From an uncultured Pseudomonadota bacterium (lineage in GTDB: Bacteria; Pseudomonadota; Gammaproteobacteria; Methylococcales; Methylomonadaceae), in contig CAIPQN010000042.1 of the NCBI GenBank assembly GCA_903867225.1, positions 102,992 through 166,991 of the forward strand: DNA of 64,000 bases. Reading direction: 5' to 3'. A program made the translations under genes and the position numbers. Of this stretch, positions 8,350 to 22,849 are shown one piece after another. Below the pieces are notes generated by a model that saw only the letters and a list, made by a program, of their open reading frames with translations, had not been told where the DNA came from and searched no databases. The number at the start of each line of letters is the position of its first letter. Within the stretch, counting starts at the first letter, position 1.

Positions 8350-10446
8350 ATGACAGATTTATCGCTTTACAGAAATATCGGTATTTTCGCCCACGTTGAC
8401 GCGGGCAAAACGACAACGACCGAACGTATTTTGAAATTAACAGGCAAAATTCACAAAATTGGCGAAGTACATGACGGCGCAGCGACGACCGATTTCATGG
8501 AACAAGAACAAGAACGCGGAATTACCATTCAATCAGCGGCGACAACGTGTTTCTGGAAAGATCACCGTTTCAACATTATCGACACACCAGGTCACGTTGA
8601 TTTCACGATTGAAGTATACCGTTCATTAAAAGTTTTAGACGGCGGTGTCGGCGTATTCTGTGGTTCAGGGGGCGTTGAACCGCAATCAGAAACTAACTGG
8701 CGTTATGCCAACGATTCAAAAGTTTCACGAATCATTTATGTGAATAAATTAGATCGTATTGGCGCAGATTTTTACCGCGTTGTGAAACAAGTTGAAGATG
8801 TTTTAGCGGCAAAACCTGTCATTATGACTTTGCCAATCGGCGAAGAAGACAAATTCTCAGGTGTGATTGATTTGTTGACCATGAAAGCCTGGAACTGGGA
8901 TGAATCAGGCGATCCGTTGAAATACACAATCGACGAAATTCCTGCTGATATGCAAGCTAAAGCAGAAGAATATCGCGTTAAATTGATTGAAGATGTTATC
9001 GATCAAGACGATGTAATTTATGAAAAATACTTAGAAGACGAAATTGCACCAAGCATTGAAGACCTTAAACGCTGCCTCCGTAAAGGCACCATCAAAATGG
9101 ATTTCTTCCCGACTTTCTGCGGTTCATCATTCAAAAACAAAGGTGTTCAATTAGTTTTAGACGGCGTTATCGATTATTTACCTTGCCCAACCGAAGTAAA
9201 TCCACAACCAGAAGTGGATTTAGACGGCAACGCAACAGGTAAATTTGCAATCGTAACCGCTGATGCGCCTTTGCGTTCATTAGCGTTCAAAATTATGGAT
9301 GACCGTTTTGGCGCGTTGACGTTCTTGCGTATTTACTCTGGTAAATTAGAAAAAGGCACAGCGGTTTTAAATACGTTCACGGGTAAAACCGAACGCATTG
9401 GTCGTATTGTTGAAATGCACGCTGACACGCGTATCGAATTAGAATCAGCGCAAGCGGGCGACATCGTTGCGGTTTTGGGTATGAAAAACGTGCAAACAGG
9501 TCACACATTGTGCGATCCAAAATTCCCAGCGACATTAGAACCAATGGTTTTCCCTGATCCAGTTATTTCGCTCGCTATTTCGCCAAAAGACAAAGCCGCT
9601 TCTGAAAAAATGGGCGTTGCATTAGGCAAAATGATTCAAGAAGATCCGTCTTTCCACGTTGAAACCGACGAAGACAGCGGCGAAACAATTTTGAAAGGCA
9701 TGGGTGAATTACACTTAGATATTAAAGTGGACATTTTGCGTCGTACACACGGCGTTGACGTAATCGTTGGTAAACCACAAGTTGCATATCGTGAAACGAT
9801 TACCCGAGAAGTGGAAGACGAATACACCCACAAAAAACAATCAGGTGGTTCTGGTCAATACGGCAAAATCAACTATATCATCACTCCAGGTGAACCAGGT
9901 TCAGGTTTCGTCTTTGAATCAACGGTTACAGGTGGTAACGTTCCACGCGAATACTGGCCTGCTGTTGAAAAAGGTTTTAAATCAATGTTGGACAAAGGCG
10001 TTTTGGCTGGCTTCCCTTGTTTAGATTTCAAAGTGAATTTAACTGACGGTGGATTCCATGCGGTGGATTCATCAGCAATTGCGTTTGAAATTGCTGCAAA
10101 AGCGGCGTTCCGCCAAACCATGCCAAAAGCGGGTCCACAATTGATTGAACCAATCATGGCAGTTGATACGTTCACGCCGTCTGATCATGTTGGTGACGTA
10201 ATCGGGGATTTAAACCGTCGTCGGGGTATGATTAAATCACAAGATGCGGGTCCAACAGGCGTTCGTATTAAATCAGAAGTGCCTTTGAGCGAAATGTTCG
10301 GTTACATCGGTGATTTGCGTACCATGACATCTGGTCGTGGTCAGTTCTCGATGGAATTTTCGCATTATTTACCTTGCCCTAAAAACGTTTCTGAAGAAGT
10401 CATCAAAGAAGTCACAGAACGCAATAAAGCAAAAGAGAAAAAATAG
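8350..10446 (+). CDS. fusA: Elongation factor G paralog (stand-alone, outside an rpsL-rpsG-fusA-tuf context)
   Basis: 698 aa. G1 [28 protein letters not shown], and EF-G domains IV/V (HAVDSS..., [10 protein letters not shown]). Confidence 0.95.
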
Positions 10447-10499: not shown

Positions 10500-10507
10500 G
10501 ATTGTGC

Positions 10508-10544
10508 AAAAAGAAAAACCGCCTGATAATTGCTCATCAGACGG
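10508..10544 (-). terminator. Rho-independent terminator ending the long flg-che minus-strand gene run
   Basis: Minus strand reads CCGTCTGATGagcaattATCAGGCGG followed by TTTTTCTTTTT. Confidence 0.6.
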
Positions 10545-10653
10545 TCTTTCCCCACTTTCTTAACACAAAACAACACACTTTTTTACAAACAACTTTACTT
10601 CTTACAACAACCAAACAACACACTTTTTATAACATAAATAATAATTTTTTAAA

Positions 10654-11382
10654 TTAAACACCTGTTCCAACTTGTAACGAATCGAACCAATCCAAAAAGC
10701 GTTTAACATCATCGCCTTTGAACATTCGTCCGTGTTGAGGGGCTAAAATATCAATATCTAAATTTCTAACACGATCAATCCAGGCACGTTTAGCCTGATT
10801 CGACGGCATCATCCGTTGATGATAGGCTCGCATTTTCTCAACGTGAACATCAAAGCGTTCAACAAATACTGGCGCATTTGCAGGTTCAAAAGCAGAACCA
10901 ACACTACCACACATTAAAATTTTCGCTTGTGGATCATAAACATGAAAGTTACAAGGCGAATGCAAGTAGTGTGCAGGAATAATCTGTAATTCCACAGATT
11001 CTATTTTAATTGTTTCGCCATTGTCTGGAATCGGCACATATTCAATAGATTCACAGCCGAAATTGCGAATGTAGCCTTCCCAAAGAGCAGGGGCGTGTAA
11101 TTTCGCATTTGATAACGCTTGATCCCATAAGCCTAATGACGAAATTACGTCAGGGTCTTGGTGTGATGCAAACAAATCCGTAATTTGATCAACTGGCGCA
11201 TGATGTAGAACTGCTGCCATCATTGGTGCAAACAATTCCGTGCCACCAGGCTCAAGCAACAAACATTTGTTTGCTGTTCGCACAATGTACTGGTTGCTGT
11301 CGATAATGTTATCGGGTTTATTTTCGTCGCGCCCAAACATCACCCATTGATGCGCTCCTTCGTAAATCTTAGTCATTTTCAT
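10654..11382 (-). CDS. Metallo-beta-lactamase-fold di-metal protein, last gene of the che operon (candidate ODP-like O2/Fe sensor)
   Basis: 242 aa with AGGAG RBS. MBL-like motif positions: ..LFASHQDPDVISS.., ..AHYLHSPCNFHVYD.., ..ILAPQHGRMF... Motif 2 is HQDPDV rather than HxHxDH, so it is not a canonical hydrolase site. 18-bp gap to the upstream mini-MCP gene. Confidence 0.6.
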   Translation of the reverse strand: MKMTKIYEGAHQWVMFGRDENKPDNIIDSNQYIVRTANKCLLLEPGGTELFAPMMAAVLHHAPVDQITDLFASHQDPDVISSLGLWDQALSNAKLHAPALWEGYIRNFGCESIEYVPIPDNGETIKIESVELQIIPAHYLHSPCNFHVYDPQAKILMCGSVGSAFEPANAPVFVERFDVHVEKMRAYHQRMMPSNQAKRAWIDRVRNLDIDILAPQHGRMFKGDDVKRFLDWFDSLQVGTGV

Positions 11383-11400
11383 GAAAATGATGCTCCTTTT

Positions 11401-12009
11401 TTAACTATTACGATAAATCGATAATGCGATTCGACAACGCTGCACATTATCATGAATGGTATGCGCCGCTTTATCGACGCTTTCGGCAACGGCTTGTAAA
11501 CTTTGTAAATACTCACCCGCTTGAGATGCTTCAATACGCGAGTTTGCCGCAATAACACGCGCTGCTCGGGCGTGGTGCATAACAGCTTCCAATTGTCCTA
11601 ATAATTGCGTCACATCACGTTTAAACTGACGTTGGCAATCTTGCATCATCGTTTTTGCGTGCGTAATCGGCTCTTGCATAGAATTAGCGTAATGCGCTCC
11701 ATTCGCCAATTTTGCCACTTGCTCAAAACGATTGTAAGCGGCAGTACGACGATACTCATTAACGGTTAAACGGTATAAAAGTAACGCATAAACATTGATA
11801 TTCGTAACTAATTCAATGGTTTCTTTAGCCAGTTCGTTAATAAAATCGGTAATTGGTTGAAAGCCTTTTGCTTTGTCACCCGCCCGAAAGGCAATTGCTT
11901 TTGCATTGGCTGCTGCCAACGAAATTTCTTTTGCAACGACCATAACGGCACTCAACTCCGACGTAATCGAAGCAACTGCAATAAATTGTGATTTTGTTTG
12001 ACTGTTCAT
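11401..12009 (-). CDS. Minimal soluble MCP-like protein (helical hairpin with diverged signalling tip, no sensor or TM domain)
   Basis: 202 aa, no hydrophobic segment. ISLAAANAKAIAFRAGDKAKGFQPITDFINELAKET aligns by eye with the canonical tip [34 protein letters not shown] of the neighbouring 772-aa MCP. Confidence 0.7.
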   Translation of the reverse strand: MNSQTKSQFIAVASITSELSAVMVVAKEISLAAANAKAIAFRAGDKAKGFQPITDFINELAKETIELVTNINVYALLLYRLTVNEYRRTAAYNRFEQVAKLANGAHYANSMQEPITHAKTMMQDCQRQFKRDVTQLLGQLEAVMHHARAARVIAANSRIEASQAGEYLQSLQAVAESVDKAAHTIHDNVQRCRIALSIYRNS

Positions 12010-12027: not shown

Positions 12028-13098
12028 TTAACGTAATCCAGTTTTAACCAGTGTCAAAATTTTAGCGGCAATCTCATCTAAAGGAAGAACGTAATCCGTA
12101 CAGCCTAATTTAAATGCTGCACCAGGCATTCCCCAAACAACACTAGATGCTTCATCTTGAATAATGGTTTTTGCACCAGCTTCTTTCATGGCTTGCATAC
12201 CAACTGCGCCATCTGCTCCCATTCCTGTAAGCAAAACACATACCGCATTTTCTTTCGCACATTTCGCAGCCGCATGAAATAACACATCAACAGCGGGTTT
12301 ATGGCGATTCACAGGCGCACTATCTTCTATTTGAATAATATATTGATTATTCATTCGTATCACGCTCATTTGAAAACCACCTGGTGCAAGATAGATATTA
12401 CCCCATTCAACGACTTGCCCATGTACTGGAATCGTTGCCTTCATGTGTGTTACTGCATCAATATGCTGCACAAAAGATTCACTAAACGCCGCTGGCAAAT
12501 GTTGAGTAATCAAAATAGGTGGGCAATTTGCAGGTAAACTTTTTACTACGACTTTGATTGCTTCTGTACCCCCAGTCGATGCTCCCAAAACAATGAGTTT
12601 AGTAAAATTCGTTGTATTTTGTGTTGAGAGGATTTTTTGCATTGCATTTATTACATTAACAACCTTAGGTTCTTCATGCTGTTTTTGCGTTTCTCCATTC
12701 GTATTTGCCGCGACACGAACTTTTGAAATAATTTCTTCTGAAAAATCTGCAAGTGTATATTCGGTATCTATTTTTGGTTTTAATACAAAATCCACCGCTC
12801 CTAAAGCCAATGCTTCTAAAGTTACTTCTGCGCCATGACTTGTAAGTGTTGAAATCATCACAACAGGCATCGGGCGCAAACGCATCAAATTTCGCAAAAA
12901 CGTAATGCCATTCATGTGTGGCATTTCAATATCGAGTGTCAATACGTCAGGATTTAACTCTTTAATCATATCTCTTGCGACCAAAGCATCTTCTGCCGCA
13001 CCAACAACTTCAATATCTGGAGCATTATTGAGTACGCTGGTTAATATTTTTCGGACTAATAAGGAATCATCGACAATTAAAACTCGTATTTTTTTCAT
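12028..13098 (-). CDS. cheB: Chemotaxis response regulator protein-glutamate methylesterase CheB
   Basis: N-terminal receiver (KIRVLIVDDS...LTLDIEMPHMNG) and C-terminal methylesterase (LIVLGASTGGTEAI, HLPAAFSESF, LLTGMGADG). Confidence 0.95.
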   Translation of the reverse strand: MKKIRVLIVDDSLLVRKILTSVLNNAPDIEVVGAAEDALVARDMIKELNPDVLTLDIEMPHMNGITFLRNLMRLRPMPVVMISTLTSHGAEVTLEALALGAVDFVLKPKIDTEYTLADFSEEIISKVRVAANTNGETQKQHEEPKVVNVINAMQKILSTQNTTNFTKLIVLGASTGGTEAIKVVVKSLPANCPPILITQHLPAAFSESFVQHIDAVTHMKATIPVHGQVVEWGNIYLAPGGFQMSVIRMNNQYIIQIEDSAPVNRHKPAVDVLFHAAAKCAKENAVCVLLTGMGADGAVGMQAMKEAGAKTIIQDEASSVVWGMPGAAFKLGCTDYVLPLDEIAAKILTLVKTGLR

Positions 13099-13136
13099 GC
13101 GTACTCTGTGAATCGGGTTTATTTATTTGTTACGAA

Positions 13137-13772
13137 TTAAAATAGTTCAACATCGCCTTCAACAGGCAAGTCTTTGATATTTCTTAAGTATTGGTGATCG
13201 CGCTGTGCAATAGTATCGTTATGCAAGTCTTGGATTTTTTTCATTCCAACTTTTCCTGTTTTTGGAAAATAAATGACTTTACGTGGATAAATATCACCCA
13301 AATCTTGCGATAACAATGTCAGTCCTTCTTGGTCAATATAATCCAAAATGAAATCTATATTGCTCTTGCCGACATCGCTTAACGTTGGAATAATTTTTCC
13401 ACCGCCAAACACCTTAATTTCCAAATTTTTACGTTTGCCACCATTAGTTAAAATGGTATTTATTAGGTGTTCCATCGCAAAATTACCATAACGGTTCGCT
13501 TGACCAATCATGGCATTGCTGCCTTGCTGCATTTTTAATTTTGTCGTTTCGGGTAACATAAAATGATTCATGCCACCAACGCCCGATTCTTTATCTCGCA
13601 CACACGCTGAAATACACGAACCCAATATCGTTGTAATCAGTTCATTTTCAGCTGTAACGTAGTATTCACCTGGTAGTATTTTTGCAGCAACAATACCGTG
13701 ATCTCTGTCTAAATAACGATTGACGTGGTCAAAACCGTGAATAGAGGGTTTATCAATTTCGCTAGCACTCAT
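13137..13772 (-). CDS. cheD: Chemoreceptor glutamine deamidase CheD
   Basis: 211 aa with CheD signature LGSCISACVRDKESGVGGMNHFMLP. Located between cheR and cheB, as in Che2-type clusters. Confidence 0.9.
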   Translation of the reverse strand: MSASEIDKPSIHGFDHVNRYLDRDHGIVAAKILPGEYYVTAENELITTILGSCISACVRDKESGVGGMNHFMLPETTKLKMQQGSNAMIGQANRYGNFAMEHLINTILTNGGKRKNLEIKVFGGGKIIPTLSDVGKSNIDFILDYIDQEGLTLLSQDLGDIYPRKVIYFPKTGKVGMKKIQDLHNDTIAQRDHQYLRNIKDLPVEGDVELF

Positions 13773-13774
13773 TT

Positions 13775-14611
13775 TTATGTATTTTTTCGATAGCTGGTAG
13801 TTGCCACCAACTCAAACTCGTTACAAATTTGATTTAATGACTCCGAATGTCCAATAAATAACCAGGACTTACTAGCCAACATTTTAGCATATCGTTTCGC
13901 CAAGGTAGTTTTTGTTTCACGGTCAAAATATATCAACACATTCCGACAAAAAATAACGTCAAAAGGTGTTTGCATGCCCCAATCTTGCATCAGATTTAAT
14001 TGTTTAAATTGAATAATTTCTTGTAATTCGGGTTTCACTTTAACGTAATCAGGCGACGATTTACTTCGCATAAACCAACGCTTCAAAACATCGGGTGATA
14101 AATCTGCAATTCGATCTTGTGTGTAAATGCCGTCTGAAGCCGTTTGCAAAACATTGGTATCTAAATCGGTGGCTAAAATTTGAGTATTCCAACCAGCAGG
14201 TAAATTTTCCAATAACGTCATCGCCACAGAATAAGGTTCTTCTCCTGTTGAGCAACCCGCCGACCAAACACGAATCTGTTTTGTACTTTTATTTCGTACC
14301 AACAATTCTGGAATAACCACGTCACGCAAATAATCAAAGTGATGCTGTTCACGAAAAAAGGAAGTTAAATTTGTCGTAATTGCGTTAATAAAATCAGTAA
14401 ATTCATCATCGTGATGATTATGCAAATACTGGCAGTATTCTTTGAAATTACTTAATCCTAATTTTCTAACACGTTTCGATAAACGAGAATAAAACATATC
14501 AAAACGTTCATCTGGCACTTGAATGCCAGAATGATCATTCGATAATTTTCTCAAGATATTGAAATCTTCAGCCGTAAATTTAAATTCGCGTTCTTTTTCT
14601 ACGATAGCCAT
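13775..14611 (-). CDS. cheR: Chemotaxis protein methyltransferase CheR
   Basis: 278 aa. TSFFREQHHFDYL, SAM-binding IRVWSAGCSTGEEPYSVAM, and FCRNVLIYFD. Confidence 0.95.
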   Translation of the reverse strand: MAIVEKEREFKFTAEDFNILRKLSNDHSGIQVPDERFDMFYSRLSKRVRKLGLSNFKEYCQYLHNHHDDEFTDFINAITTNLTSFFREQHHFDYLRDVVIPELLVRNKSTKQIRVWSAGCSTGEEPYSVAMTLLENLPAGWNTQILATDLDTNVLQTASDGIYTQDRIADLSPDVLKRWFMRSKSSPDYVKVKPELQEIIQFKQLNLMQDWGMQTPFDVIFCRNVLIYFDRETKTTLAKRYAKMLASKSWLFIGHSESLNQICNEFELVATTSYRKNT

Positions 14612-14649
14612 ATTTACAACGCATTTCCTTTGATTTTATCAATCAATTG

Positions 14650-15402
14650 CTAGACTTCGGTTATTTCAAGAACATCAAGTAAATTCAACAATTTTGCAGA
14701 TTCAATAAATCGTGTAGACGGATAAATGATGCCCACATTTTTATGTGATTGCTGCTGATATTTTTTCAATGAAACTAATAATTGCAACGTTGCAGTATCG
14801 ATTGTCGTGACATCTGAAGCATTGATTTCAATGGTATCGTGTGCCGCTAAAGCCCGTTTTATTGTGTCATAAAGTGCCACGATATTTTTAATCGTCGCTT
14901 CAGCATTTAATTCAATCAATGGTTCGACTATTTCTTCAGGTTTTTTTTCAGGAACTTCTTCGGGTTCTTTTTCAAGAACGTCTGTTTCTTCCAAGGCAAT
15001 TTCACTGATTTCTTCAACTATTTCATTGATAACTGTGTCATCTGTTTCTGAAGATTCCATCGAGATTTCAACATCTATATCAACATTTTCATCAGTGTCG
15101 ATAGCGATTTCAATGTCGCCGTCTTCATCAACGATTACGTCGATTTCAAATTCTTCCGTTGTATCTTCATCATCAGTCGCGTCATTACTTTCAGCTTCGA
15201 TAGCGATTTCTTCAGTTACAGCAACAACTTCATTTTCGGTTTCTTGTTCAACTTGTTCTTCTGGCTCATCAACCACGGGAGCGGCTTTTGCTTTTGTTTT
15301 CGCTTTAGTTACTTTTTTAGCGGGTGCAGGAGGTGTTTCGTCAAGCGTTTCGCCATCCATCCATGCCAATGGATCGTAACCAATTAAATTATTTGTTGTC
15401 AT
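14650..15402 (-). CDS. Highly acidic protein with C-terminal STAS domain (possible partner of the adjacent ParA-like ATPase)
   Basis: 250 aa. Short N-terminal peptide, then a Lys-rich patch (KKVTKAKTKAKA). About 130 aa of D/E-rich low complexity follows. The C-terminal ~90 aa are STAS-like (LNAEATIKNIVALYDTIKRAL...IEINASDVTTIDTATLQLLVSL...). 14-bp overlap with the parA-like stop. Confidence 0.7.
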   Translation of the reverse strand: MTTNNLIGYDPLAWMDGETLDETPPAPAKKVTKAKTKAKAAPVVDEPEEQVEQETENEVVAVTEEIAIEAESNDATDDEDTTEEFEIDVIVDEDGDIEIAIDTDENVDIDVEISMESSETDDTVINEIVEEISEIALEETDVLEKEPEEVPEKKPEEIVEPLIELNAEATIKNIVALYDTIKRALAAHDTIEINASDVTTIDTATLQLLVSLKKYQQQSHKNVGIIYPSTRFIESAKLLNLLDVLEITEV

Positions 15403-16162
15403 CTGTCATTACCCTATCTTCAAGAAAATCATTGGCAAGATTACGGAAATCTCGTGCAGAACGGCTTTTTGGACTGTATTCCAAAATGGTTTGTCCAAAA
15501 CTTGGACATTCCGCTAATAACGCTGTTTCACGAATGACTGTCGCCAATATCTGATTAGGAAAGTGGGACAGTAATATGTTTATAACCTGACCAGAAATAC
15601 GGCGCGTGGACATATAACGCGAAATCACGACCGAAAGTTTATATTGCCGTTTTAATGCACCTTCAAAACGCTTCACTGTCGCCATTAAATGCGACAAACC
15701 TTGTAACGCTAGAAAATCACTCGCCATTGGAACCAAAATTTCTTGTGTGGCAATTAACGCATTTGCCACCAATAATCCTGACGATGGCGGGCAATCAATA
15801 AATATGAAATCTTGATCTTCCAATTGACCACGCAACGCATCACGCAACATGACTCCGCGTGGTGAACCTGTATTGCTCATTTGCTCTACGTCTTTAAGTT
15901 TCGAGCCTGCGGGAATCAATTGTAAATTTTCGCGCACTGATACTGCTTGATCCTCAATGGTTTTTTCTTTGAGCAAAGCCAAATCAACGCCACTTAAATT
16001 GTGCGAAATAATGCCAAATGAAACGGCTAAATGTCCTTGCGGATCAAAATCAATGACCGTCACTTTTTTGCCTAATTCAGCGAGTGCATGGCACAAATTC
16101 GCTGTCGTCGTGGTCTTTCCGACCCCGCCTTTTTGGTTAATAATGGCGATTATTCTGGTCAT
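15389..16162 (-). CDS. ParA/MinD-family ATPase embedded in the chemosensory operon (ParC/PpfA-like)
   Basis: 257 aa with deviant Walker A IINQKGGVGKTTTTANL and Walker B-like FIFIDCPPS. 1-nt overlap (TAATG) with the upstream cheW stop. Confidence 0.9.
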   Translation of the reverse strand: MTRIIAIINQKGGVGKTTTTANLCHALAELGKKVTVIDFDPQGHLAVSFGIISHNLSGVDLALLKEKTIEDQAVSVRENLQLIPAGSKLKDVEQMSNTGSPRGVMLRDALRGQLEDQDFIFIDCPPSSGLLVANALIATQEILVPMASDFLALQGLSHLMATVKRFEGALKRQYKLSVVISRYMSTRRISGQVINILLSHFPNQILATVIRETALLAECPSFGQTILEYSPKSRSARDFRNLANDFLEDRVMTDDNK

Positions 16163-16683
16163 TACAGAAAGTCTTCCGTGTCAGGCGAAATAGAATCGGC
16201 AAGCTCATCCATTCCATCAAGTTCATCTGGATTAAGTAGTTTGTCTACGTCCAAAAGCATAATCATATTTTTTTTATAAACGTGCATTCCACGCATATAA
16301 CGGGTGTCTAATTGCGAACCAAAATTAGGTGCTTTTTTAATTTCGCTGAGTTTTATATCAAGAACATCTGAAACCGCATCTGCCACAATTCCCATCACAA
16401 ACGTTTCAGTGCGATGATGTTTTACGCACAACACAATTACGACAGTTTTATGGGTATATTCACAATGTTCTAGCGAAAAACGTTCGCGTAAATCCACAAT
16501 CGGAATGACAGAACCGCGTAAATTTAATACGCCTTTGATAAAAGAAGGTGCGTTTGGAATTACACGCACAGCTTCCCAACCTCTGATTTCTTGTACCTTT
16601 AATATTTCCACACCATAGACTTCACTGGCGAGTTCAAAAGTTAAAAATTGCTCAATTTGTTTATTATGTACATCAGTAGTCAT
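16162..16683 (-). CDS. cheW: Chemotaxis coupling protein CheW (copy 2)
   Basis: CheW domain (FLTFELASEVYGVEILKVQEIRGWE...VLNLRGSVIPIVDLRERF), paralogous to the 172-aa CheW at 19077. The track start 16752 is a GTG overlapping the MCP gene; ATG at 16683 with an AGGAAA RBS is preferred. Confidence 0.9.
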   Translation of the reverse strand: MTTDVHNKQIEQFLTFELASEVYGVEILKVQEIRGWEAVRVIPNAPSFIKGVLNLRGSVIPIVDLRERFSLEHCEYTHKTVVIVLCVKHHRTETFVMGIVADAVSDVLDIKLSEIKKAPNFGSQLDTRYMRGMHVYKKNMIMLLDVDKLLNPDELDGMDELADSISPDTEDFL

Positions 16684-16723
16684 GATTGTTATTTCCTGCG
16701 GGTTATATGTAGCATTATCAGTT

Positions 16724-19042
16724 TTAAAACTCTTCCCAATCATCACTGCCACTGCTCATCGTCGAAACGGGTAGGGCAGGTGATTTCATTTTTGCGACAG
16801 GTTGTTTCATCGGTGTTGAAGTTTGGCTTCGTGTCGATGAATTTTTGTCACTGACTTTAAAGAAATTGAGCAACTGAGACATTTTGGCAGACTGCTCACT
16901 CATTGCCATACTGTTCGCTGCCGCTTCTTCCGCTAAAGCAGAATTTTGTTGGGTAATATCATCCATTTGTGCCACGGCTTGATTTACCTGACTAATTCCA
17001 GTCGATTGTTTATCGCTGGATTCGGTAATTTGTCCGACAATGTCACCAACTCTGATAATACTATCGACAATTTCCATCAATGCTGCACCTGTTTCATTAA
17101 CAAATGCCGTGCCAGAGCGCACTTTTTGTACGCTATTTTGAATCAATTCACTACTTTGTGCTGCTGCAGTTGCGCTGCGTTGCGCTAAGTTTCTGACTTC
17201 CGTAGCAACTACAGAAAAACCACGTCCTTGTTCGCCTGCTCTTGCTGCTTCTACGGAAGCATTCAACGCCAACAAATTAGTTTGGAAAGCGATTTCGTCA
17301 ATCACACCAATAATTTCAGCGATACGATTACTACTTTCGTTAATTTCTAACATCGCGCCAATGGCAGATTTCACCACCTCACCGCCTTTTTCTGCCAGCT
17401 GTGTCGCTGACTCAACTACTTTCGTGGCTTGCTGTGTATTTTCGGCATTGCTTTTCACTGTGTGAGATAAATCATTCATGCTCGCAGCAGTTTGTTCCAA
17501 GCTACTGGCTTGTTGTTCAACACGTTGTGACAAATTATTGTTGCCGCTTGCCATTTCTTGTGACGAGTTATTGACGAATTCAGCCGTTTCGCGAATTTGT
17601 AAAATAAAATGACTGATTTTAGAAATTGCATCGTTAATATGATCTTTACATTCTGCGTAAATACCTTGGTAATCCGATTGAATGCTATTAGTTAAATCAC
17701 CGTCTGCCATTTTTTCTATAACTGTATTGATGTCAACGAAGACATTTTCAATTATATCGGTTAATTCGTTAATGTTAATAGACAGCGATTTCTCAAAACC
17801 TTCTTTATCGTCAACACGAATTCGCGCACTTAAATTTCCAACTTTAATTGAATTTACTAAATTTACAATTTCTTGTTCAATTTTTGCTTCTAAAGTTCTA
17901 TCTTGCCATTCCGCGACGTAACCAATGCGCTCGCCGTTACTAGCAATAACAGGTTTAGCAATGACTTGCATTGAACGCCCCGCCAATACTAAATGTGAAG
18001 TTATAGAATCGGTCAGTCCTTTTAGTAAATCCCGCTGATATGCTGGATTTTTATGAAATATATCAATGGTTGAGCCAAGTAAGTTTGCCGCTTTAAAAGC
18101 AGGCAGTTCTTTACGAATATCATTTTCTGCATTGGTAAATAATTGTTGTGCTGCTTTATTCACAAAAATAATTTCTAAATTCGCATCTGCAATTAATACG
18201 CTAGATTGCACATTTTCTAATCCACTAATCACGCGCAGAGCATCAGAAGATGATTGACGTAAATCACCCAAATCGCTGCCTAATCTAATGCCTGTACCAT
18301 AAATGGCGCGTAATAATTCACCAAATTTATCATTACGTTTTAAATCAGGTGGTTTTGCGAATCTGTCGGTGCTTAATCGGTGTAATTCATTGATGGATAG
18401 TTCTACTAATTCGCAGGTATTGTGCGAGATACTGAACACCATCGCACCGCCTAAAACGGTTAATCCACCAACAATTGAGAGTAAACCATAATCCGCTGTA
18501 TTCAAAAACTCGGACATTAAAAAAACATTTGGAGCAACAAGAAAGGTTGATGCAAATGCTAGTTTTGTGCCAAGCGAAATTTCTTTAATTTTCTTTAAAA
18601 ATGCTGCGAAACCTGTTGCGTGTAACACAGCTTGATTCGCTGCAATTTTGCGATACAACGCTTCGGTTTCAATAATATCGCTTCGTAAAGGTGCGTGACG
18701 TACAGAAATATAACCAATCGCTACGTTATTTTCCAACAACGGCATGACATTCGCGTTCACCCAATAATAATCACCTGATTTTGACCGATTTTTTACTACA
18801 CCGTGCCACGGATTACCTTTTTTGATGGTATTCCACATATCTTCAAATGCCGCTTGAGGCATATCGGGATGGCGAACAACATTGTGTGATGCTCCAATAA
18901 GTTCATGGTGTGAATATCCGCTGATTTCTACAAAGGCATCATTCACAAACGTAATCACACCTTTTAAATCAGTACGAGTGACTAAAATCGTACCTGTTTT
19001 CATCAAACGTTCATTGTTTGTGACTGGGATATTCATTTTCAT
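16724..19042 (-). CDS. Aer-like methyl-accepting chemotaxis protein: PAS(Aer-type) - membrane hairpin - PAS - HAMP-like - MCP signalling domain - C-terminal DWEEF
   Basis: 772 aa. The N-terminal PAS carries the Aer hallmark [42 protein letters not shown]. Two hydrophobic stretches at about aa 160-215, then a second PAS ([21 protein letters not shown]). Canonical tip [34 protein letters not shown]. The extreme C-terminus is SGSDDWEEF. Confidence 0.9.
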
Positions 19043-19076
19043 TACGGCTTATCTCGTTAAAAATTGGTGATTAAAA

Positions 19077-19595
19077 TTAACTTTCTATTAATTCCATTGT
19101 GTCTAACGTCAATAATTTATCTACGTCAAGCAGCATTACCATGCGTTCATTAACCGAAACAAGACCATTAATAAATTCGTTACTTACTTTGGTACCAAAA
19201 TCAGGTGCGCCTTGAATTTCAGATTTATCCACGCTAATCACGTCAGAAACCGAATCAACAACGACTCCCATAATTCGCGTGTGACTGCCGCTGCCTGTTT
19301 GCAAAACCACGACAACTGTAAGTGGCGTATATTCGACTTTGCTCAGAGCAAAACGTTCGCGTAAATCAATAATTGGCACAATCGCGCCGCGCAAATTCAC
19401 CACGCCTTTTTCATAAAGCGGCACATTTGGAACTCGTGACACAGGTTCCCAACTGCGAATTTCTTGTACTCGTAAAATATCAACGCCGTATTCTTCTTTG
19501 CCTAATACAAAACTTAAATACTGAATAGTAATTGGCATTTCTGAATTAGCTTGCGCGACTTCTTTTGCAATCGGTTTTTCGTTTTCTTGTGACAT
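19077..19595 (-). CDS. cheW: Chemotaxis coupling protein CheW (copy 1)
   Basis: 172 aa with CheW domain (YLSFVLGKEEYGVDILRVQEIRSWE..VVNLRGAIVPIIDLRERF). Confidence 0.9.
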   Translation of the reverse strand: MSQENEKPIAKEVAQANSEMPITIQYLSFVLGKEEYGVDILRVQEIRSWEPVSRVPNVPLYEKGVVNLRGAIVPIIDLRERFALSKVEYTPLTVVVVLQTGSGSHTRIMGVVVDSVSDVISVDKSEIQGAPDFGTKVSNEFINGLVSVNERMVMLLDVDKLLTLDTMELIES

Positions 19596-19626
19596 AACAG
19601 TTTTCTGTATAAATGAGTGAGAAAAA

Positions 19627-21702
19627 TTAGCGCACGGACAAGCGAACTAAACCAGGCACGTCGAGAATTAACGCCACTGAACCGTCGCCCAAAATGGTTG
19701 CACCTGACACGCCTTCAACACGTCGATAATTGGCTTCCAACGATTTAATAACCACTTGTTGTTGACCAAGCAATTCATCAACCAAAAAGCCACATAATGC
19801 GCCTTGTCCTTCCACAACAACGATTACGCCTTCATTTGATTTTGTGGCGTTGCCCGATTTTACGTTGAAAATTTCGCGCATTCGGATAATCGGTAAATAC
19901 TCGTTACGCAATTTAAAGGTTTCACCTTTACCTGCAACTTTATTGAGCATTTTTTCTGTGATGTTAATGGATTCGATAATTGAAACGAGCGGGACAATAT
20001 AAGTTTCATCGCCAACTGCTACGGATTGACCGTCCAAAATTGCTAATGTTAACGGCAAATGAATCGCAATAGTTGAGCCTTTGCCAAGTTCAGAAATAAT
20101 GTCGATATTGCCGCCCAATGATTGGATATTTCGACGTACTACGTCCATACCAACGCCGCGTCCAGAAATATCAGTCAATTTTTCGGCGGTTGAGAATCCT
20201 GGCATGAAAATCAATTCCAGAATTTGTTTATCTGTCATTATGGTGGATTCTTCGACCAAGCCTTTTTCAATTGCTTTTGCGAGTAATTTGGCTTTATCCA
20301 TGCCGCGTCCGTCATCGACAATTTCGATTACGATGTGACCGCCGCGATGATAGGCTTTTAATTCGATTGTTCCCATTTCAGGTTTGCCAGCGGCAACCCG
20401 ATCCGCAGGCATTTCGATGCCGTGATCTAAACTATTACGAATTAAATGCACTAATGGATCGTTGATTAACTCAACTACCGCTTTATCGACTTCGGTGTTT
20501 TCACCCACCAATTTCAGCGTAATTTTTTTATGTAATTGGGTACTGATGTCGTGAACCAAACGCGGGAAACGACTAAATACGAAGCTAATTGGCAACATAC
20601 GAATGTTCATTACACTTTGTTGCAAATCGCGAGTGTGGCGTTCTAATTGTGCCAAACCACGTTTAAGCTGCCCAACTTTATCCATTGTGAAATTTTCACC
20701 AATCAAACCTAACATGGATTGTGTAATTACAACTTCGCCCACCATGTTAATCAAAGTATCAATTTTATCGGTATCTACTCGAATCGAACTAGAAGCCTTT
20801 GGTGCATTTTTTGATGGATCCGATTCTGTTGGTGCAGCTTTTTTAGGTGCTACAACAGGTGCAGTTTCAGCCACGACAGCGGGAGCTGCTTCAACGACAG
20901 GAGCAGGTGAGGGCGCGGGTTTTGGTTTTTTTACTTTTTTAGGTTTTGCTAAAGGAGCAAGTTCCAACGCACAATCTTCTTCAACCCAACTGAAGATTTC
21001 GCGAACCGCTGCTTCTGTTGCATCACTAACTAATGTTAATTCCCATGAAATGTTGCATTCTTCGGGATCTAATTCAGCAAATGGCGGTACATCTTGGATA
21101 TTGACGTTTGATGTTAATTTACCTAGCACGCTTAATTCTCGGAATAAGCGAACAGGATCATTACCTGTTTTGAGTAGGCTTAAATAAGGGCAGAATGAAA
21201 TTTTCCAGCCTTGTTCCTCGTCAATCTCCTCCTCTTCTTCGGGTTCTTCTACTGGAACAACAAATGGTGCGGCATGAACGACTGGTGCAGCGGCATGTTC
21301 ACCGCCACCTGTTTTCCCGTTTAACTCCATTTCTAGCGCAGCTTGATGTTGCGCCGCGCTTTCCATGTTGACATCTTCTTCATTCTGAATGGATGTTAAC
21401 ATTTCGCGTAAGCAATCAACCGAACCTAAAAGTACGTCCACCGCAGGTTTTGTAACTTGTCTACGCCCATCACGCATTTCATCAAGTAGCGTTTCCATGA
21501 TGTGGGTATATTCAGCAACGACGGTAAAGCCGAACGTACCACTACCCCCCTTAATGGAGTGTGCTGCCCTAAAAATAGTATTGATGACCTCGGAATCAAT
21601 GTCGCCAATATCGAGCGACAGCAATCCAGACTCCATCGCTTCTAAGCCTTCAAAACACTCTTCAAAAAAGACTTGATGAAATTGTGACATATCGATAGAC
21701 AT
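19627..21702 (-). CDS. cheA: Chemotaxis histidine kinase CheA (P1-P5)
   Basis: 691 aa. P1 Hpt (RAAHSIKGGSGTFGF), acidic linker, Pro/Ala/Lys-rich linker, P3/P4 (HLIRNSLDHGIE, DDGRGMD, GRGVGMDVV) and a P5 CheW-like domain. Confidence 0.95.
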   Translation of the reverse strand: MSIDMSQFHQVFFEECFEGLEAMESGLLSLDIGDIDSEVINTIFRAAHSIKGGSGTFGFTVVAEYTHIMETLLDEMRDGRRQVTKPAVDVLLGSVDCLREMLTSIQNEEDVNMESAAQHQAALEMELNGKTGGGEHAAAPVVHAAPFVVPVEEPEEEEEIDEEQGWKISFCPYLSLLKTGNDPVRLFRELSVLGKLTSNVNIQDVPPFAELDPEECNISWELTLVSDATEAAVREIFSWVEEDCALELAPLAKPKKVKKPKPAPSPAPVVEAAPAVVAETAPVVAPKKAAPTESDPSKNAPKASSSIRVDTDKIDTLINMVGEVVITQSMLGLIGENFTMDKVGQLKRGLAQLERHTRDLQQSVMNIRMLPISFVFSRFPRLVHDISTQLHKKITLKLVGENTEVDKAVVELINDPLVHLIRNSLDHGIEMPADRVAAGKPEMGTIELKAYHRGGHIVIEIVDDGRGMDKAKLLAKAIEKGLVEESTIMTDKQILELIFMPGFSTAEKLTDISGRGVGMDVVRRNIQSLGGNIDIISELGKGSTIAIHLPLTLAILDGQSVAVGDETYIVPLVSIIESINITEKMLNKVAGKGETFKLRNEYLPIIRMREIFNVKSGNATKSNEGVIVVVEGQGALCGFLVDELLGQQQVVIKSLEANYRRVEGVSGATILGDGSVALILDVPGLVRLSVR

Positions 21703-21778
21703 AATTTTACCTGTGTGCGCCTGAGTTTATTTATATGAGGTTGGAATCCAACCATTTCTGAAAATTATACAAAGATAG

Positions 21779-21794
21779 AGCAAATGCTGTGCCT
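21779..21794 (-). promoter_or_regulatory. Candidate sigma-54 promoter in front of cheA: AGGCACagcatTTGCT
   Basis: Minus strand reads tttttAGGCACAGCATTTGCTct. It matches TGGCAC-N5-TTGCW at GGCAC and TTGCT with exact spacing. Lies in the 187-bp hpt-cheA gap, about 75 nt upstream of the cheA ATG. Confidence 0.55.
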
Positions 21795-21857
21795 AAAAAT
21801 CAACTCAATATAAATTAAAAGTTGCAAAGGCGTTTTCTCTAGCATTTTTAAACTGTT

Positions 21858-21875
21858 GCGCCGATTTCTCGGCGC
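21858..21875 (-). terminator. GC-rich hairpin with GAAA loop 15 nt after the Hpt gene stop (attenuator or processing/stability element; no U-tract)
   Basis: GCGCCGA-gaaa-TCGGCGC forms a perfect 7-bp stem in an otherwise AT-rich spacer. It is followed by aacaguuuaaaaa, so it is not a classical intrinsic terminator. Confidence 0.4.
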
Positions 21876-21889
21876 GGGTGAATTTATAA

Positions 21890-22276
21890 CTAAGCGATTG
21901 ATGCTTTCATTTTTGTGCAATGTGCCATTGCAGCATCATCATTAACGACTTCTTTGTTTTGAAGTGTCTTAATCATGGCGCGAAGAAAATCAACGGATTC
22001 CAACATCATTTTGATATTGTCAGGATTTGTCAATTTCGTTTTATCACGCATTTCAGCTAAAAGATGCTCCATCTCTTTCGCATATTCGGCAACAGTGTGG
22101 AATTCCAACATCGCACAACCACCTTTAATGGTGTGTGCGCCACGATAAATCGTCATCATTTTTTCAAAATCAAACGCATCTAAATCAATGCTTTCAAGTT
22201 CTGACTTCATAATGTCTAAATTTTCTAAGCATTCTTCAAATAAAACATCATGAAACTGGGTCATATCAACAGACAT
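21890..22276 (-). CDS. Stand-alone Hpt (CheA-P1-like) phosphotransfer protein
   Basis: 128 aa. MSVDMTQFHDVLFEECLENLDIM...RGAHTIKGGCAMLEF is clearly paralogous to the CheA N-terminus MSIDMSQFHQVFFEECFEGLEAM...RAAHSIKGGSGTFGF. Confidence 0.85.
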   Translation of the reverse strand: MSVDMTQFHDVLFEECLENLDIMKSELESIDLDAFDFEKMMTIYRGAHTIKGGCAMLEFHTVAEYAKEMEHLLAEMRDKTKLTNPDNIKMMLESVDFLRAMIKTLQNKEVVNDDAAMAHCTKMKASIA

Positions 22277-22330
22277 CTTCTTTTCCTTTTGGGTGTTTAA
22301 TAAACAAAAATATAAGTTGCGCTAAATTGA

Positions 22331-22705
22331 TTAACCCAGCACTTTGAGTAATGTTTTCAAAAGCTGATCTGGATTAAATGGCTTAACCATCCACCCTGTT
22401 GCACCTGCTTCTTTGCCTTCCATTTTCTTTTCCATGCCTGATTCTGTAGTCAACATCAGCATTGGAACGTGTTTGTACTGCGGTAACTTTCTGAGATCTC
22501 GAATTAACTCAATCCCATCTTTATTTGGCATATTGACATCGGTTACGACGCAATCAAAAGTGCGAACTTTGGCTTTTTCTAAAGCATCAACACCATCTTC
22601 GGCTTCTTCTACATCATATCCAGCAGTTTTTAAGGTAAACGCCACCATTTTTCTCATTGAAGCTGAATCATCAACTGCAAGAATACTCGCCATCATTTTC
22701 TCCAT
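22331..22705 (-). CDS. cheY: Chemotaxis response regulator CheY
   Basis: Single receiver domain (ILAVDDSASMRKMV...VVTDVNMPNKDGIELI...MLTTE...GATGWMVKPF). The track start 22714 is a TTG. ATG at 22705 is used; ATGs at 22696/22693 are also possible. Confidence 0.9.
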   Translation of the reverse strand: MEKMMASILAVDDSASMRKMVAFTLKTAGYDVEEAEDGVDALEKAKVRTFDCVVTDVNMPNKDGIELIRDLRKLPQYKHVPMLMLTTESGMEKKMEGKEAGATGWMVKPFNPDQLLKTLLKVLG

Positions 22706-22849
22706 TGTTATCAAAGCAAAATACCAGGTGATATTACCGCATCTAGCACTACCTTGTTAAGCATAACCCCGTTTTTTTTACTTGATTCAACGAGAGATTG
22801 ACGTTGATGCCGTTTTACCTAAATCCTATGTCGATTTTTTGACTGCCTT

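Follow-up and report, generated by a model that had tools for sequence, protein, structure and literature searches.

An ODP-family sensor gene paired with a tandem chemoreceptor-tip gene, of predicted single-chain fold, at the end of a Methylococcales che operon

Introduction

The window analysed here is a stretch of 64,000 nucleotides from an uncultured bacterium of the Methylomonadaceae, order Methylococcales (GenBank assembly GCA_903867225.1, contig CAIPQN010000042.1, positions 102,992 to 166,991 of the forward strand), in which a chemosensory (che) operon ends in two small genes. The first encodes a receptor-like protein of 202 amino acids (aa), hereafter p202, and the second a 242-aa protein which, judged by its sequence, is a member of the family of oxygen-binding di-iron proteins (ODPs), with the metallo-beta-lactamase (MBL) fold. 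Our reading, to which we give a probability of about 0.6, is that the two form a sensor-adaptor module, in which the ODP would work through p202 as a single-chain “pseudo-dimer” docking to CheA and CheW, and in which the metal site of the sensor is a variant found in this lineage.

ODP/receptor systems of Treponema denticola and Thermotoga maritima were reportedly described by Muok et al. in 2019 (PDB 6qnm, 6qrq and 3g67). In such systems the ODP, which binds iron and O2, signals via a sensor-less soluble receptor to which it is linked genetically and which modulates CheA, and the receptor TDE2496, which forms dimers of 52 kDa and hexamers of 156 kDa, deactivates the kinase (PMC7666581, PMC6978683). 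The association of ODP genes with genes of methyl-accepting chemotaxis proteins (MCPs) is known in general, since, according to PMC7319448, ODP-MCP operons were already noted in the genomic survey of the original ODP study.

The gene pair at the end of the operon

Both open reading frames (ORFs) and both 18-bp gaps, one between cheB, whose end lies at 12028, and the p202 gene, the other between the p202 and ODP genes, were verified in the window. The original prediction, made from the sequence alone, had placed these as the last two genes of the operon, which is what was found, and the peptides that it quoted, AFRAGDKAKGFQPITDFINELA and HQDPDV, are both present in the translations. The operon reads cheY-hpt-cheA-cheW-MCP-cheW-parA-STAS-cheR-cheD-cheB, followed by the pair; the features discussed below are collected in Table 1.

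Table 1. Coordinates of the gene pair, its motifs and the flanking elements in the window.
Feature	Position	Strand	Basis or remark
p202 gene (202 aa, receptor-like)	11401..12009	-	ORF; tandem double MCP-tip hairpin
ODP-family gene (242 aa, MBL-fold)	10654..11382	-	ORF; PF19583 and PDB matches
Hairpin 1 tip block, residues 26-65 (AKEISLAAANAKAIAFRAGDKAKGFQPITDFINELAKETI)	11815..11934	-	turn ~G44-G49 (about residue 45)
Hairpin 2 tip block, residues 139-196 (contains ARAARVIAANSRIEASQAGEYLQSLQAVAESVDKAAHTI)	11422..11595	-	turn ~G165-S170 (about residue 165)
p202 variable distal part, residues 66-138	11596..11814	-	far halves of helices 2 and 3, loop 102-107
ODP MBL motif 2, H74-Q-D76-P-D78-V79	11146..11163	-	same in both solved ODPs
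ODP motif 3 His141, then lineage-specific Cys144 (H-S-P-C)	10951..10962	-	alignment, ligand spacing
ODP Ser160 (codon AGT), motif-4 position	10903..10905	-	alignment with 6qrq and 6qnm
ODP motif 5, Q216-H217 (PQHG)	10732..10737	-	alignment
Probable intrinsic terminator, ACCGTCTGAT-gagcaatt-ATCAGGCGGT then TTTTTCTTTTT	10507..10545	-	hairpin and T-run, read by eye
Upstream operon genes, F7/Che2-like cluster	12028..22714	-	ORFs, Pfam and NCBIfam matches, conserved order

The 242-aa protein and its metal site

The assignment of the MBL fold in the original prediction was confirmed over the full length of the ODP family profile: PF19583 matches the 242-aa protein at 8.2e-64 (215.5 bits, cutoff 27.2), with residues 27-218 covering all 194 profile positions (1-194). 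A search of the PDB aligned residues 6-240 with the ODPs of T. maritima (6qrq, 1.4e-58) and T. denticola (6qnm, 6e-51). The flavodiiron relatives gave a weak direct match (2q9u, 4e-4; NF008887, 5e-6), and NCBIfam holds no model for either the ODP family or the p202 family. The profile comparison that had been suggested returned a close match to ODPs, and the candidate ligands could be mapped at a flavodiiron-type spacing.

The same comparison overturns the view that motif 2, HQDPDV, is altered. Both HQDPDV and PQHG are shared with the two solved ODPs; the former is missing from only two of the related loci covering motif 2, and Q216-H217 of motif 5 is conserved in every aligned sequence that covers the position. 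In the T. maritima ODP the motif-5 Gln stands in for the third His of the MBL motif 2 (PMC7785958), and HQDPDV is therefore a signature of the family. Reasoning from an altered motif 2 fails for this reason, and the real change lies at motif 4, with Ser160 and Cys144.

At motif 4 the two solved ODPs and 60 related loci read GD[IV]G, whereas the window reads G-S-V-G. Position 160 is Ser in the window and in 21 further species genomes (L001-L006, L008-L021 and L065, many of them metagenome-assembled genomes from lake water columns), Asp in 60 and Lys in 1. The substitution is strictly coupled to a change of Gly or Ala to Cys at position 144, three residues past His141: Cys144 occurs in 22/22 Ser160-type and 0/60 Asp160-type ODPs, and A163S, N176R and F/W187Y are coupled with it as well. 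There are Asp-type orthologues 82-85% identical to the window-type variant.

The ligand spacing of the window ODP, H74-x-D76-x-D78-V79-x61-H141-x18-S160-x56-H217, has the same x61, x18 and x56 intervals as the canonical flavodiiron pattern, H-x-E-x-D-H-x61-H-x18-D-x56-H (PMC11408035), which places Ser160 where a carboxylate ligand is expected. Beyond this likeness the two differ, for the window ODP is without the flavodoxin domain, has Val as the fourth residue of motif 2 and a Gln in motif 5, and carries Ser for Asp. From the spacing in MBL (PMC7785958) and flavodiiron proteins (PMC11408035), we infer that the motif-4 Asp is a metal ligand in ODPs. Among the family ligands His141 of motif 3 is present and the motif-4 Asp is replaced; since Ser160 stands where a bridging Asp is predicted and a Cys has arisen beside His141, this lake Methylococcaceae lineage probably has a modified metal site and perhaps senses a different signal.

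It is possible, although we rather doubt it, that the ODP of the lineage is no longer a di-iron O2 sensor, but reports another signal (thiol redox, H2O2, NO or another metal) or serves as a metal-poor structural partner. The strict coupling of D160S with G/A144C in 22 species genomes fits such a loss, as does the fact that position 160 falls exactly on the flavodiiron Asp ligand; yet H74, D76, D78, H141, Q216 and H217 are all intact, selection is equal in strength to that on the Asp-type relatives, and a solvent or peroxo bridge could replace the Asp. MBL relatives with a changed motif 4 or an extra Cys have altered metal chemistry (PMC7785958), iron binding is disputed for non-canonical flavodiiron sites (PMC11408035), and two relatives are without His74 and His141; set against this, the nearness of Cys144 to the metal is suggested by its place in the sequence and not by coordinates.

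The two relatives just named are the ODP orthologues of L059 (Ca. Methylobacter favarea) and L063, with genes at about 10646..11371, in which His74 is changed to Asn together with His141 to Tyr. This ligand loss differs from the Ser160 change of the window lineage.

Two chemoreceptor tips in tandem in p202

The protein p202 is all-helical and has neither a transmembrane (TM) nor a sensor domain, as had been predicted; the tip, which had been placed at the centre of the chain, lies instead at residues 26-65, and a second, diverged tip occupies residues 139-196. Some p202 orthologues carry a precomputed match to the MCPsignal family PF00015. A PDB search with p202 returned the receptor tips of TM1143 and of Tm14 and fragments of the latter, its N-half matching 2ch7, 4jpb and 3g67, and the hairpin 1 block aligns with the tip of the MCP encoded in the same operon and with those of Tm14 and TM1143.

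That the two halves are related was found in three ways. A BLOSUM62 self-alignment of p202, half against half, scored 69 versus 25.5±4.1 for shuffles (z=10.7), in the register RAGD/QAGE; a profile-profile comparison of the N-half and C-half of the family gave P=3.2e-5 in the same register; and the C-half profile alone, in the tip register, matched the Tm14 tip fragments 3ur1/4jpb (3e-7), Tm14 itself (3g6b/3g67, 1e-6) and TM1143 (6e-5). Both halves map to one and the same segment of Tm14 (54-145), from which it follows that Tm14 has one tip and p202 two. On these alignments, p202 is an MCP-derived protein made of two tip hairpins in tandem, and the conserved hairpin tip of the solved receptors (NA..EAARAGE.GRGF-type) is found in it twice.

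Conservation, a fourth line of evidence for the second tip, follows the same division. Across 16 orthologues two near-invariant blocks, 26-65 and 139-196, surround a variable middle, and residues 66-138 show low conservation in three orthologue and family alignments. Among 139 members of the wider family N35 is invariant, and conservation reaches at least 90% at L19, A26, A36, R42, A43, G44, L136 and E160. The tips have diverged from each other, hairpin 1 keeping N35, R42, G44 and F50 and hairpin 2 keeping E160; we take these to be N381, R388, G390 and F396, and E385, respectively, in the numbering of E. coli Tsr, all of which would lie in the trimer-contact and tip region. A methylation consensus, strict or relaxed, was not found in p202 and occurs in 3/132 family representatives, while the 772-aa MCP of the operon has one. 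With predicted arms of about 45-54 residues, p202 would also not be a long symmetric dimerising hairpin of one of the heptad classes (24H-64H) that were reportedly defined for MCPs by Alexander and Zhulin in 2007.

The pair resembles TDE2498/TDE2496 and ODP/Tm14 in several respects: the Pfam family of the sensor is the same, the alignment is full-length, HQDPDV and PQHG are common to all, and its gene is coupled with a sensor-less, TM-less, MCP-derived gene in or near chemotaxis genes. At the level of the families, then, the proposed ODP/small-receptor pair holds. What does not hold is the partner as a minimal hairpin, for p202, at about 200 aa, has two hairpins in tandem and a predicted single-chain bundle. 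In this it is unlike the canonical receptors, which are dimerising hairpins, among them TDE2496, a hairpin forming dimers and hexamers, and Tm14, with its single central tip. It could still be argued that p202 is an ordinary one-tip hairpin acting as a homodimer, given that it resembles MCP tips and lacks a sensor domain, and that both characterised ODP partners are of that type. We regard this as highly improbable: the tip turn at ~44-49 of 202 residues leaves an N-arm of only ~45 residues, a second tip-like hairpin was detected independently, both halves fall on the same segment of Tm14, and the AlphaFold models have four helices, not two.

Predicted fold and covariation

An AlphaFold model built with 16 close orthologues places helices (H1 to H4) at 3-47, 51-101, 108-161 and 166-200 (pLDDT 81), and one built with 139 diverse family members reached pLDDT 96.2 and pTM 0.88, with pLDDT 96-98 through the loop between the hairpins; this loop, 102-107, is present in both. 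For both models the best Foldseek matches were single-chain four-helix bundles of about 196 aa (8d9p, 5vju), with TM-scores of 0.52-0.55. The helix lengths fit a closed bundle, H2 (51 residues) and H3 (54) being joined by six residues.

Covariation was analysed by mean-field direct coupling analysis (DCA) of 353 sequences (effective number, Neff, 143; low-gap columns, zero-sum gauge), with the contact lines fixed beforehand: antiparallel for H1-H2 (i+j≈96), H3-H4 (i+j≈326), H2-H3 (i+j≈209) and H1-H4 (i+j≈212), and parallel for H1-H3 and H2-H4 (j-i≈118). Of the 100 highest-ranking pairs, 30 fall on the four inter-hairpin lines, versus 10.1 expected (hypergeometric p=3e-8), and among them pairs close to the tips link the two hairpins (50-159, 53-156, 46-166 and 57-174). 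This disfavours a non-swapped rod with its tips at opposite ends, and most likely the p202 chain folds by itself into a short bundle of four helices, each some 50 residues long, in which the two tips share one end.

The secondary-structure assignment (DSSP) of the deep-alignment model runs unbroken from 3 to 101, through tip 1. A continuous helix of 99 residues was rejected, because four-helix bundles of 196 aa can be superposed on the model over ~200 columns and because H1 and H2 covary antiparallel, with a peak at i+j ~84-96 among the top 200 pairs.

Two known proteins help to place the architecture. DosM (VC1403), from F9 cytoplasmic arrays, likewise carries two MCP signalling domains in one polypeptide (PMC7534058); it is, however, a long rod with a tip at each end that bridges two baseplates, whereas the hairpins of p202 are short and their tips are put at the same end by covariation and by the model. 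Tar/Tm14 tip dyads and foldons engineered in the Crane laboratory also join two tip hairpins of ~70-100 residues in one chain, as a mimic of the four-helix protein-interaction region, but these are artificial and symmetric, whereas p202 is natural, ancient, spread over more than 300 clusters (50% identity) and, because its two tips have diverged, asymmetric.

The example of DosM suggests a further possibility, namely that the hairpins are opposed in a miniature rod, or are swapped between chains, so that an oligomer builds the bundles and could bridge two baseplates. DCA is blind to whether a contact is made within or between chains, and the input to AlphaFold was a monomer only, both of which leave room for such an arrangement, and in F9 systems DosM does place two signalling domains on an extended rod. 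Nevertheless, we judge it unlikely. The tip-proximal pairs 50-159, 53-156 and 46-166 are unexpected for a non-swapped rod with opposite ends, and the compact model departs from the opposite-end arrangement of DosM; H2 and H3 are matched in length across their six-residue loop, whereas H3 and H4 are not (54 vs 35); the deep-alignment model is confident through that loop; and a rod of ~14 nm would mismatch the 36H Aer2-type receptors of F7 arrays.

Family spread, pairing and selection

When 1.84 billion cluster representatives were searched with a profile, 313 p202-family clusters (50% identity, E≤1e-3) were recovered. Among the 150 clusters listed of these 313, 131 are 190-260 aa long, most matching over nearly the full length. 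The members that could be named are all gammaproteobacterial, from Methylococcales, Thiotrichales, Agarilytica (Cellvibrionales) and vent Gammaproteobacteria, and are mostly annotated as “hypothetical” or “chemotaxis protein”. Distant members, at 25-40% identity, keep both tip motifs; they came from the representative-library and distant-seeded searches, the mixed-alignment homologue search having returned Methylococcales only.

The pairing with the sensor, which the original prediction had proposed to check in other genomes, recurs consistently. In 80 species genomes the ODP gene lies directly downstream of the p202 gene in all 77 of the 77 loci with room for it, and an ODP gene also adjoins the p202 homologue in six distant members outside Methylococcales, looked up singly. 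In Methylobacter- and Methylovulum-type genomes the pair lies 3' of cheB, directly so in the window lineage and elsewhere at a distance of ~0.2 kb in most, at most 0.6 kb. The expected co-occurrence with che clusters is therefore seen in these genomes, and is absent within 8 kb in the six contexts outside Methylococcales and in the available flank of L067-L075.

The protein p202 ranks among the best conserved of the operon: relative to its Methylobacter orthologues it is 86-90% identical, versus 59-68% for CheB and 55-60% for the MCP. The dN/dS values are 0.02-0.03 for p202 and the ODP, as compared with 0.10-0.17 for cheB, and against three other Ser-type genomes the ODP gene has a lower dN/dS than cheB, cheD, cheR and cheW. 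Both genes are under purifying selection, and the ODP gene is not decaying.

Two arrangements depart from the usual order. In Methylomicrobium sp. wino1 (L078, 7171..11358) cheB is followed by a McpA-like receptor (401 aa), a STAS protein (101 aa), a receiver plus HATPase-like protein (324 aa), the p202-type stub and the ODP, which hints at a partner-switching module beside the pair. In L088/L089 (6001..6690) a 229-aa protein stands between cheB and the ODP, in which a zinc-binding CZB domain (PF13682) is fused to only helix 1 and tip 1 of the stub; it ends in unrelated residues, the ODP gene still follows 55 nt downstream, and the fusion may be a rearranged or decayed variant.

The surrounding operon

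By its genes, the operon matches the F7 type, with cheY, cheA, two cheW, an Aer2-like receptor, cheR, cheD and cheB, and the related loci L002-L065, of the Methylobacter and Methylovulum types, keep its upstream order wherever their available flank extends that far. Such F7/Che2-type clusters have been described for Che2 of P. aeruginosa, cluster III of V. cholerae and F7 of M. alcaliphilum (Ortega et al., 2020; PMC7184735). In the window operon, the slot 3' of cheB is filled by the p202-ODP pair; a word search of that description (PMC7184735) did not find “lactamase”.

The operon receptor of 772 aa (16724..19042, minus strand) has an N-terminal PAS domain, matched by NifL- and LOV-type models, and 500 C-terminal residues that are Aer2-like (Vibrio Aer2 model NF041847, 1e-135, below cutoff), and it ends in DWEEF, a pentapeptide of the CheR-tether type. 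Its PAS domain contains the string NVVRHPDMP, which we take to be that of E. coli Aer. As this receptor shares the operon with the ODP pair, the operon may have two separate O2/redox inputs.

Four other neighbours deserve mention. CheD (13137..13772, minus strand) ends in EGDVELF, which closely resembles the C-terminal EGDIELF of the wino1 McpA-like receptor (L078, 7171..8376); the conserved C-terminus of McpA, whose role is not known, was remarked on by Ortega et al. (PMC7184735). Between cheW and cheR (14650..16162, minus strand) lie a ParA/MinD-type ATPase of 257 aa and a protein of 250 aa whose N-half is strongly acidic and of low complexity and which has a STAS domain at its C-terminus; the two may together be an array-positioning module. 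A stand-alone Hpt protein of 128 aa (21890..22276, minus strand), between cheY and cheA, has an N-terminus closely similar to the start of the P1 domain of CheA. Convergent with the operon end runs the gene of a 698-aa EF-G-like GTPase (8350..10446, plus strand), and between the two gene ends lies the hairpin listed in Table 1, a probable intrinsic terminator closing the operon; a promoter/terminator consensus scan found nothing significant between or after the genes and did not call this hairpin.

Discussion

In the mechanism that we propose, the 242-aa ODP would report O2 and/or Fe(II), or the redox state, by analogy with the ODPs of T. denticola and T. maritima. The protein p202, a descendant of the chemoreceptor tip that controls the kinase, would be a natural single-chain version of the protein-interaction region, without sensor, HAMP domain or methylation region, and would dock via its tips into CheA/CheW baseplates, be it in the F7-type array of the operon or in a different one. 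Kinase control would then change with the metal or ligand state of the ODP bound to p202, and the pair could add to the PAS receptor of Aer/Aer2-like type a second input for O2 or redox state. There is a precedent in engineered receptor “dimers” made as single chains, which bind CheA/CheW and deactivate the kinase (bioRxiv 10.1101/2020.03.27.011866). The divergence of the two tips means that each face of the pseudo-dimer can specialise.

Several points weigh against this proposal and have to be set beside it. The PF00015 match to p202 (residues 12-73) reaches 23.2 bits, under the cutoff of 34.6, and self-alignment of single distant members is mostly not significant (median z 1.1), so that the claim of a duplication rests on the clade of the window, the profile-profile comparison and the MCP match of the C-half. 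The Foldseek E-values go down only to ~1e-3, which lends support to the topology and not to homology, and swapped oligomers would be compatible with a monomer model as well as with the covariation. For the sensor, the missing motif-4 Asp may mean that the window ODP no longer binds two irons. The links of p202 to CheA, CheW or the ODP are putative ones. Finally, in all six stand-alone contexts examined beyond Methylococcales the pair is without a che gene within 8 kb, and an output to chemotaxis is thus not guaranteed.

This last point opens the way to another explanation, in which the pair serves an output other than chemotaxis, the stub being a recruited adaptor and its place in a che operon secondary. 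Besides the six of six stand-alone contexts, the Methylomarinum- and Methylomonas-type loci L067-L075 show no che gene in their available flank, and according to TREND (PMC7319448) several pathways of signal transduction have recruited ODPs. It is common, however, for orphan receptors to signal to che clusters at other loci; conservation in p202 is highest exactly in the two MCP tip motifs, that is, the docking elements for CheA/CheW; and in genomes of the Methylobacter and Methylovulum types the pair comes after cheB in an order kept over deep divergence (synonymous divergence, dS, >1). We therefore think this explanation improbable and retain the proposal of a sensor-adaptor module that feeds CheA.

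A bolder form of that proposal, which we offer tentatively and would not ourselves bet on, would combine two specialisations: an asymmetric natural “receptor dimer” with tip jobs divided, for example, between trimer contact and the docking of CheW/CheA-P5 or the ODP, and, in the ODP of lake Methylococcaceae, a metal centre re-engineered through Ser160 and Cys144 for a different signal or O2 range at the oxycline.

Conclusion

Literature text searches, with the original ODP study outside their scope, did not find a natural single-chain or pseudo-dimeric chemoreceptor or an ODP in methanotrophs, and neither the architecture of tandem hairpins nor the Ser/Cys variant of the site appears to have been described before. 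The sensor module presented here is of a known kind, but its receptor architecture is new and its metal site is a variant specific to the lineage; we ascribe a function to it by inference. The receptor dimers of which chemosensory arrays consist are symmetric and yet put to asymmetric use, with one subunit pointing toward the trimer axis and the other toward CheW or CheA, and to our knowledge the dissection of this asymmetry has required engineered single-chain constructs. If our reading is true, a widespread natural single-chain receptor with two diverged tips and an obligate sensor partner would provide a compact, crystallisable system, in which p202 could reveal the role of each tip surface and the way in which a sensor bound at the side switches the kinase. 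The natural Asp-to-Ser and Gly-to-Cys variant of the ODP is directly comparable with its Asp-type orthologues. For methanotrophs living at oxic-anoxic interfaces, the pair adds a candidate input for O2, iron or redox state beside the Aer/Aer2-like receptor.

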